Shown one piece after another: positions 7,529 through 7,903 of a stretch of DNA of 64,000 nt (position 1 is its first letter; each line of letters begins with the position of its first letter). The position numbers were made by a program, and so were the translations under genes. The stretch covers positions 90,125-154,124 of the forward strand of contig CAJKVH010000002.1 in the NCBI GenBank assembly GCA_905203305.1, read 5' to 3'. The notes under the pieces are model-generated. The model was not told the DNA's origin. It worked only from the letters and a program-made list of their open reading frames with translations, and searched no databases. Source of the stretch: an uncultured Eubacteriales bacterium. GTDB lineage: Bacteria > Bacillota > Clostridia > TANB77 > CAG-508.

Positions 7529-7562
7529 TTCGACATTTTTCTAAATTTATATGTATTATAAT
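7529..7562 (+). promoter_or_regulatory. promoter-like element: TTCGACA (reverse Spo0A '0A box', also -35-like), an 18-nt spacer, then TATTATAAT
   Basis: The same arrangement recurs at 12511-12544 upstream of the paralogous small ORF. A second TTCGACA lies at 7878-7884. Confidence 0.4.
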
Positions 7563-7593
7563 ATTATCTATCTCTAAAAAAGAAGGTGATATC

Positions 7594-7728
7594 ATGTCTC
7601 ATGGGAAGCACGAGAGAAAAAGCACTTTTAAATTTCATGAATTTTTGCAAAAAATTCTACATAATTTAAAAATAATTTATGAAATTTCAAAAGTACTAAA
7701 AAATATTATTGATATTTTCCATCAATAA
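7594..7728 (+). CDS. 44-aa basic amphipathic small protein (paralogue of the 12578-12712 ORF)
   Basis: It sits between a strong agaaggtga RBS and a terminator. The product is MSHGKHERKSTFKFHEFLQKILHNLKIIYEISKVLKNIIDIFHQ. It shares about 55% aa identity with the second copy, and the two differ partly by synonymous changes, which indicates a coding sequence under selection. Confidence 0.55.
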   Translation: MSHGKHERKSTFKFHEFLQKILHNLKIIYEISKVLKNIIDIFHQ

Positions 7729-7760
7729 TAAAAAACAGACGTAGTTACGATACGTCTGTT
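7727..7760 (+). terminator. rho-independent terminator of the small ORF
   Basis: acagacgta-gttacga-tacgtctgt followed by ttttttt. Confidence 0.6.
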
Positions 7761-7903
7761 TTTTTGATAATTTTTATTATCAATTTTATCTCTATATTGT
7801 AATACCTGTCTCATGGTTTACAATTATATTATATACTTTTTTTCATTTTTTGCAATAGTTTTGTAATAACTTTTTCAAAAATCGTTCGACAAAATATTTC
7901 AAA

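Follow-up and report, generated by a model that had tools for sequence, protein, structure and literature searches.

Loci of the par type are defined by convergent promoters, a shared bidirectional terminator, two direct repeats (DRa and DRb) that sequester the translation initiation region of the toxin mRNA, and a 5' stem-loop that hides its Shine-Dalgarno (SD) sequence (PMC7472228). The par repeats are poorly conserved, which makes co-resident copies orthogonal (PMC7472228). In Clostridia, type I toxins have a hydrophobic N-terminus and a lysine-rich C-terminus (PMC6563280), and the C. difficile pairs CD2517.1-RCd8, CD0956.2-RCd10 and the prophage-borne CD0977.1-RCd11 each combine a small peptide with a cis antisense RNA and are present in several copies per genome (PMC6563280). 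Here we analyse a stretch of 64,000 nucleotides (nt) from contig CAJKVH010000002.1 of an uncultured Eubacteriales bacterium, hereafter called the window, which carries two copies (unit 1 and unit 2) of a module built in a comparable way: a gene for a 44-amino-acid (aa) basic amphipathic peptide is followed, on the opposite strand, by a predicted antisense small RNA (sRNA) gene. We suggest that each unit is probably a par-like module of the type I toxin-antitoxin kind, and that the modules most likely represent a new type I toxin-antitoxin family in which the toxicity of the peptide is something we infer. The analysis was computational and covered the window and the related loci; elements, RNAs and duplexes were predicted from sequence.

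With par of pAD1 (Enterococcus faecalis; Fst, RNA I/RNA II) the module has in common the convergent promoters, the shared bidirectional terminator giving complementary 3' hairpins, the two direct-repeat blocks through which antitoxin and toxin initiation region become complementary, and poor conservation of these repeats leading to orthogonal co-resident copies. As to the SD-hiding hairpin of par, the SD of the free module mRNA is predicted to be paired, with a probability of being unpaired below 0.3, in 11 of 16 loci (0.44 and 0.55 in units 1 and 2); the partner differs between loci and is predicted to be either the CU-rich 5' end or codons 2-4. Fst itself is characterised by a transmembrane (TM) helix, a P/D/S/TxxxG (PXXXG) motif, a conserved Trp and a charged C-terminal tail, all of which are absent from an alignment of 20 module peptides. 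These have instead a basic N-terminus and a 35-residue amphipathic helix, and their genes have TTCGACA boxes at both promoters. As the Fst signature is absent, the module would work like par without being a member of the Fst family. The C. difficile type I modules have toxins with an N-terminal TM segment, lie mostly in prophages or next to CRISPR arrays and are transcribed from Sigma B promoters, whereas the module described here has an inverted charge polarity, no TM domain, sites among housekeeping genes, and boxes resembling the 0A box bound by Spo0A.

Antisense RNA predicted behind the peptide gene

Units 1 (7529-7891) and 2 (12511-12860) contain their parts in identical order and can be aligned with a mean column identity of 75%; no third copy was found in the window, which has a GC content of 28%. 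A preliminary description of this DNA had proposed a 44-aa basic amphipathic peptide gene with its own promoter, ribosome binding site and terminator, and had pointed out that the architecture recurs. All of these elements are present, the gene is conserved at the protein level, and unit 2 is indeed a second copy, followed by an extra remnant (12888-12932). The same description took the stretch behind the unit 1 terminator for a degenerate partial second copy. This view does not hold, as the stretch is predicted to be an antisense RNA gene in which the echo of the start region serves as target-recognition sequence and covaries with its target in 16 loci. The remnant at unit 2 is the only true decayed second copy, and unit 1 has none.

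A consensus scan detected a near-consensus minus-strand promoter in both units, pointing back toward the terminator. The post-terminator stretch is thus, by prediction, a convergent minus-strand sRNA gene sharing a bidirectional terminator with the peptide gene. We regard the unit 1 terminator as bidirectional because A and T runs lie on its two sides, and that of unit 2 because of the symmetry of its A-run, stem and T-run. Since the echo lies within the minus-strand RNA, it is there antisense to the start-codon region of the peptide mRNA. The 5' part of the sRNA is complementary to the extreme 5' end of the mRNA and to the start codon with codons 2-4, in two blocks between which the SD is skipped. 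The chance of TGTCTCATGG in unit 1 recurring within about 600 bp at this GC content is roughly 2e-4 by our own estimate from base composition.

We further compared the units with related loci found through the peptide family described below. DNA was fetched for eleven of the 19 peptide clusters, and the duplex matrix comprises 16 loci. Every fetched locus follows the same order: TTCGACA box, 21 bp, TATAAT, GGAGGTG, an open reading frame (ORF) of 43-47 aa, bidirectional terminator, echo of its own start and minus-strand promoter. The two echo blocks flank the SD in every locus examined, and the antisense promoter is kept in all of them with a TTGCAA- or TTGCAT-type -35 and a TATAAT -10.

The predicted duplexes are specific for each copy. 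The unit 1 sRNA pairs with its cognate mRNA at -34 to -38 kcal/mol as against -9 kcal/mol with the unit 2 mRNA, while the unit 2 sRNA reaches -31 kcal/mol with its own mRNA and -12 kcal/mol with that of unit 1, hence no cross-reaction is predicted between the two window copies. For the first seven loci, cognate duplexes range from -28 to -34 kcal/mol, compared with about -7 to -10 kcal/mol (standard deviation (sd) about 3) for shuffled sRNAs. Over all 16 loci, which come from different genomes and contexts, the mean predicted energy is -33.7 kcal/mol for cognate and -13.5 kcal/mol (sd 4.9) for non-cognate pairs, and the cognate pair is ranked at the top in 16/16 rows and 16/16 columns of the 16 x 16 sRNA-mRNA matrix. 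When single columns of codons 2-4 are considered, the identity between an mRNA and its own echo is 0.76-0.94, as opposed to 0.25-0.57 with non-cognate echoes; 19 of 22 columns contain at least two different bases, each matched by the echo. As complementarity has been re-created in every locus in spite of the differing sequences, we conclude that it is selected and copy-specific, and we regard the predicted antisense pairing as very well supported.

We note that the echo is often mismatched at the first base of the start codon, which reads CTG for ATG in unit 1 (7806) and in the related locus L066, and TTG in both L006 and L007. In the duplex this would leave the A of AUG unpaired, followed by 9-10 nt of perfect pairing. 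A coding role of the sRNA was also considered, and a 30-aa minus-strand ORF (7722-7814) was rejected as it has no counterpart in unit 2. Searching 7000-13500 against Rfam at E <= 10 yielded no hits other than sub-threshold ones around the terminator (STnc40 with 25 bits against a gathering threshold of 45, and STnc240 with 24.7 against 55).

In 10 of 11 contexts the neighbour on the sRNA side is transcribed in the same direction as the sRNA, and such genes have no terminator of their own. This is also seen for lysS (7904-9403, - strand), which has none in the stretch 7821-7906 ahead of the sRNA gene; read-through would thus carry the whole antitoxin sequence in the lysS 3' untranslated region (UTR) down to the shared terminator.

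Table 1. Features of unit 1, unit 2 and the adjoining remnant; positions are those of the window.
Feature	Position	Strand	Remarks
Unit 1 left TTCGACA box	7529-7535	+	Reverse complement of Spo0A core box TGTCGAA; exactly 21 bp upstream of peptide -10
Unit 1 TATTATAAT	7554-7562	+	Contains -10 TATAAT (7557-7562)
Unit 1 peptide mRNA, predicted start	~7569	+	Predicted sRNA duplex starts here
Unit 1 repeat block a TATCTCTA	7569-7576	+	mRNA 5' end; recurs at 7787-7794; part of predicted duplex
Unit 1 SD AAGGTGA	7583-7589	+	Unpaired bulge in predicted mRNA-sRNA duplex
Unit 1 peptide ORF MSHGKHERKSTFKFHEFLQKILHNLKIIYEISKVLKNIIDIFHQ	7594-7728	+	ATG start, 44 aa; family membership, AlphaFold2 (AF2) single helix 9-43, amphipathicity
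Unit 1 repeat block b TGTCTCATGG	7595-7604	+	Two of three start-codon bases and codons 2-4; exact 10-nt direct repeat at 7807-7816
Unit 1 intrinsic terminator	7730-7764	both	14-bp stem, detected on both strands; common to peptide mRNA and sRNA
Unit 1 predicted antisense sRNA	7726-7821	-	~96 nt; 5' hairpin carrying CCAUGAGACA, small hairpin, terminator; fold z = -7.2
Unit 1 sRNA target-recognition region	7787-7816	-	Echoes of block a (7787-7794) and block b (7807-7816)
Unit 1 antisense promoter	7828-7855	-	TTGCAA 7855-7850, 16-bp spacer, TATAAT 7833-7828
Unit 1 TTGCAATAG	7850-7858		Read from sequence
Unit 1 right box TCGTTCGACA	7882-7891	+	29 bp beyond antisense -35; 13 nt from lysS stop codon
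Unit 2 left TTCGACA box	12511-12517	+	21 bp upstream of TATAAT (12539-12544)
Unit 2 peptide ORF MKSRKHKRKSTNVIAKFLHKILDCLNIILKIAYVLKAIIDVFRQ	12578-12712	+	TTG start, 44 aa; L001-L005 orthologues likewise start at TTG
Unit 2 terminator	12714-12747		Scored on + strand only in the scan; symmetrical A-run, stem and T-run
Unit 2 predicted antisense sRNA	12710-12789	-	~80 nt; 5' hairpin GAAAGU/ACUUUC, loop CGGGAUUCAAGAA antisense to TTG start region; fold z = -3.4
Unit 2 sRNA echo blocks	12750-12759, 12761-12766, 12771-12784	-	
Unit 2 antisense promoter	12796-12824	-	TTGCAA, 17-bp spacer, TATAAT
Unit 2 right box TCGTTCGACA	12851-12860	+	
Decayed remnant of tandem second unit	12888-12932	+	Last 5 ORF codons and terminator 12903-12932; 90-94% identical to 12700-12752

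For unit 2, the start codon is most likely the TTG at 12578, located 8 nt after the SD, rather than a GTG abutting the SD. The peptide mRNA of this unit would begin at about 12551, and in both units an mRNA length of some 200 nt is predicted. The right box of unit 1 had been noticed previously, with coordinates (7878-7884) that were slightly off and are replaced by those of Table 1. The terminator of the remnant lies directly behind the stop codon of a trmB-like gene (12932-13594, - strand, Methyltransf_4) and probably serves to terminate it. The terminator stem (A)ACAGGCAU...AUGCCUGUU is kept between distant family members (e.g. 12714-12747; L001-L010, L066, L069), unlike the flanking recognition blocks, and a TTTTTCAAAAA-like motif is also retained between the antisense -35 and the right box.

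The peptide family

The two window peptides are 55% identical, and their genes differ by 11 synonymous and 25 non-synonymous changes, corresponding to a ratio of non-synonymous to synonymous substitution rates (dN/dS) of about 0.4. A profile made from the two detected five loci in metagenome-assembled genomes (MAGs) of uncultured gut Clostridia; an exhaustive profile search gave 19 clusters (50% identity) among 1.84e9 proteins, and a wider one 51 clusters (90% identity) among 5.8e9 proteins, where the only label was "MAG: hypothetical protein [Clostridia bacterium]". Neither peptide of the window was present in the searched protein collection, and a word-indexed search for homologues using only the unit 1 peptide gave no hit. 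Throughout the family dN/dS is mostly 0.1-0.5. Selection on the protein, suspected earlier from the differences between the two copies, is thereby supported, as it is by the finding of the 51 clusters.

Family members are 43-47 aa long, with length and stop position conserved in the 20-sequence alignment, and follow the consensus MxxxKxKRKSTxxIxKFLHKILxxLKIILEIxKVLKSIxxLFH. Six of the first seven loci use TTG as start codon. AF2 predicts one helix (residues 9-43) behind a basic, disordered N-terminus, with a mean predicted local distance difference test score of 82. The helix is amphipathic, with Lys at every 3-4 residues, and the net charge of the peptides is +3 to +10. The hydrophobic moment over 18 residues is 0.58-0.72, to be compared with 0.66 for delta-lysin, 0.59 for SpoVM, 0.55 for melittin, 0.48 for Fst and 0.22 for PepA1.

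The family had not been recognised by the preliminary description, and the database searches agree, as Pfam, NCBIfam, PADLOC, PHROG and PDB gave no match. The best PHROGs score, E = 0.016 for 2 of 20 members, is at noise level, as were the hits of a PDB profile search, and a literature search for strings of the peptide sequence returned no paper. Judged by its conservation, the peptide is a real protein family, undescribed and unnamed.

The helix has features in common with TisB of the E. coli TisB/IstR-1 pair, with delta-lysin and other phenol-soluble modulins and with melittin, namely a narrow charged stripe or a high hydrophobic moment. By analogy, a membrane-active mode of action seems plausible for the module peptide. 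There is no sequence relationship; TisB is shorter and has membrane-spanning hydrophobicity (maximum 19-residue Kyte-Doolittle mean 2.5 as against 0.8-2.0 here), and the phenol-soluble modulins are not known to be under antisense control.

TTCGACA boxes and possible Spo0A control

The left TTCGACA box is located exactly 21 bp upstream of TATAAT in all 15 loci for which box spacing was determined. The right box likewise has a fixed offset, TCGTTCGACA lying 29 bp beyond the antisense -35 in most of the fetched loci, which places it at about -66 to -72 of the antisense promoter; one locus (L071) is without it. Box density is 3.9/kb in the modules and 0.04/kb outside, an enrichment of about 100-fold, and the orientation is always the same. 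Four of the five TTCGACA sequences in the window fall inside the two units, and the exact box-spacing pattern occurs in the two units only. The fifth (60066-60072, - strand) lies inside a coding region and was taken as chance. It is carried by an ORF at 59860-60969 (369 aa) whose product is extremely acidic and rich in Glu and Asp.

The box had been described as Spo0A-box-like and also usable as a -35. Its occurrence is non-random and its spacing fixed, but the plain -35 is doubtful: TCGACA as an ordinary -35 was rejected, given the 21-bp spacing to a perfectly conserved TATAAT in 15/15 loci, and 21 bp is too far for the left box to be a likely sigma-A -35. An over-spaced arrangement of this kind is known from Spo0A-activated sigma-A promoters of the spoIIG type in Bacillus subtilis, where a -35-like/0A element lies about 22 bp from the -10. 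The likeness to spoIIG- and spoIIE-type promoters is one of sequence and spacing only.

Spo0A of C. difficile recognises the TGTCGAA core, and a box that matches it perfectly is predictive of binding (PMC3485338). Such perfect 0A core boxes are present in the promoter regions of the module, two per unit at fixed distances. The hosts are spore-formers, with SpoIVA adjoining the module in L072 and a CwlJ/SleB-type hydrolase adjoining unit 2; the spo0A gene was not found in the 64-kb window. As the peptide promoter has no usable -35 but a perfect inverted 0A box at 21 bp ahead of its -10, and as the antisense promoter has a box as well, expression may be tied to phosphorylated Spo0A (Spo0A~P). 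Spo0A control of the module is thus plausible.

Genomic context and copy dynamics

Unit 1 is located between asnS and lysS, and unit 2 between the cwlJ-like gene and trmB. Elsewhere the modules neighbour gmk-rpoZ, smc-ogg, bipA, ligA-toxN, recG-nusA, a kinase/regulator pair and spoIVA-asnS. The order asnS-module-lysS recurs in a genome with an AsnRS of only 63% identity. When metagenome contigs were scanned with a DNA pattern, 52 stretches were obtained, of which only four were true family members, all of the unit 2 type, while scans of viral contigs gave chance matches only and no module in phage contigs.

Some loci hold tandem or disrupted copies. In L069 (1480-2300) two intact modules stand in tandem, one with its ORF at 1596-1736 and the other at 2001-2132; about 55 bp separate the right box of the former from the -35-region box of the latter, which follows downstream. 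L079 (3540-4075), on the same contig as L072, is a second module between asnS and lysS, the position also held by unit 1. About 170 bp of inserted sequence (3612-3790) now stand between its ORF and the promoter and SD. On the sRNA side nothing is disrupted, and the RNA is predicted to pair at -30.9 kcal/mol with the initiation region of the module, itself intact, that lies upstream of asnS. Because the ORF is disrupted and the intact sRNA still pairs with the sister module, L079 looks like an orphan antitoxin.

Two further neighbourhoods were recorded. A gene for ToxN, the toxin of a type III toxin-antitoxin system (PF13958), directly adjoins the module in L067 (2303-2821) and L068 (1568-2086), so that two RNA-antitoxin systems stand side by side. 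In L071 (411-2432) the module splits histidine kinase and response regulator genes that would normally form one operon.

Proposed mechanism and alternative explanations

We propose that transcription from the near-consensus sigma-A promoter would yield an sRNA of about 80-100 nt, with its 3' end at the shared terminator. It would bind the peptide mRNA, probably also through the complementary terminator hairpins, and thereby occlude the start codon or block the ribosome, so that no peptide would be made as long as sRNA is available; cleavage of the duplex may follow as well. A local hairpin would in addition hide the SD of the free mRNA in most loci. Once the sRNA falls below the level of the mRNA, the peptide would be produced and, as a cationic amphipathic helix, may permeabilise or depolarise the membrane and thus arrest growth or lyse the cell. 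It is more speculative that expression of the pair could be tied to Spo0A~P, i.e. to stationary phase or entry into sporulation.

Of the three guesses made earlier for the peptide (a sporulation-phase small protein, a membrane-active peptide or a type-I-toxin-like element), the last fits the evidence best. A locus-encoded antisense RNA pairing with the toxin mRNA, as expected of a type I system, is found computationally through promoter, shared terminator, duplexes and covariation. A further expected feature, a small hydrophobic protein with a predicted TM helix, is not found. Non-membrane type I toxins exist, so the missing helix does not exclude this class. The population behaviour, with diverged orthogonal copies within 5 kb, tandem copies, a decayed copy and an orphan sRNA, fits a toxin-antitoxin-like module, and the orphan sRNA beside a disrupted ORF, the TTG starts and the hidden SD may be read as indirect hints of toxicity.

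A number of observations weigh against this interpretation. Transcription starts, sRNA and RNA-RNA binding are computed from the DNA, and the toxicity of the peptide is what we infer. The peptides are without a TM segment, the maximum 19-residue Kyte-Doolittle mean being 0.8-2.0 in 15 of 16 loci as compared with 2.2-2.5 for Fst, PepA1, BsrG and TisB, and their basic tail is N-terminal, not C-terminal as in the usual type I toxins. Neither window peptide has a Pfam or NCBIfam match at E <= 10, and PADLOC also returned nothing. The first start-codon base is often mismatched in the echo, as described above. The YUNR U-turn is missing in both window units from the terminator loop and occurs in only some relatives; this motif is not universal in the Fst/Ldr family either (PMC7472228). 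The link to Spo0A consists of the identity of a 7-mer and its spacing. Finally, conserved positions among housekeeping genes and the lack of phage copies fit a domesticated regulator as well as an addiction module.

The last point leads to the possibility that the same RNA architecture gates a non-toxic peptide, i.e. a physiological small protein timed by Spo0A, such as an amphipathic sporulation peptide, in principle like SpoVM, with membranes or partner molecules as its target, or a nucleic-acid-binding basic helix. A TM segment is missing from the peptide, whose amphipathicity is as close to that of SpoVM (0.59) as to that of the lytic peptides, modules hold conserved chromosomal positions in diverged species, perfect 0A-type boxes lie at fixed positions with sporulation genes nearby, and no phage or mobile-element link was found in the viral-contig scans. 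We nevertheless consider a non-toxic role somewhat unlikely, as diverged orthogonal copies, tandem duplications, decay and an orphan sRNA are typical toxin-antitoxin dynamics and unusual for a housekeeping regulator, and as the double translation lock (hidden SD and antisense over the start) and weak TTG starts suggest that leaky synthesis is costly. It is very unlikely that the peptide is exported against competitors as a leaderless bacteriocin or cytolysin-like product (43-44 aa, cationic, no signal peptide) with the antisense RNA only tuning its output. No transporter or immunity gene is consistently linked to the modules, which have unrelated housekeeping neighbours in 11 contexts, and no bacteriocin family was matched in Pfam or NCBIfam. 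Leaderless bacteriocins typically have a compact multi-helix fold, and AF2 gives one long helix here. What speaks for such a product is an ABC transporter adjoining L009, hydrophobic moments comparable to those of lytic peptides, and the size, charge and helix of the peptide, which resemble those of leaderless class II bacteriocins and phenol-soluble modulins.

We give hardly any credence to the idea that the post-terminator stretch is a functionless duplication remnant, or that TTCGACA direct repeats delimit the unit as a small repeated or mobile element. The echo is indeed a direct repeat of 5' UTR and start region, as a duplication would give, and genuine cases of tandem duplication and of decay are seen; the unit also has TTCGACA on either side as a direct repeat, near which tandem units are joined. 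A neutral copy would drift, however, whereas each echo tracks its own start region in 16/16 loci with the SD precisely omitted, and in every locus a near-consensus opposite-strand promoter with conserved spacing points into the echo. As for mobility, no transposase, terminal inverted repeats or phage association was found, and the position is conserved between distant species. We retain the par-like type I module as the probable identity of the units. A far-reaching version of it, in which the toxin is a cationic amphipathic non-transmembrane lytic helix, both promoters are wired directly to Spo0A and the peptide is released at the sporulation decision, e.g. for growth arrest, sibling killing or mother-cell lysis, seems unlikely to us.

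Significance

The present study adds a small-protein family from uncultured human-gut Clostridia, now with a concrete and testable mechanism. The predicted presence of at least 16 mutually orthogonal sRNA-mRNA pairs on one scaffold should be useful for studying the evolution of antisense specificity, and for portable RNA regulators. The modules further suggest that a par-type RNA architecture can couple to a peptide completely unlike Fst. If the boxes are indeed Spo0A sites, RNA-controlled peptide toxins would be linked to the sporulation decision, a link not described so far, and if the peptide is a toxin with both promoters wired to Spo0A, the module would be, among type I toxin-antitoxin systems, the first directly embedded in the Spo0A regulon.

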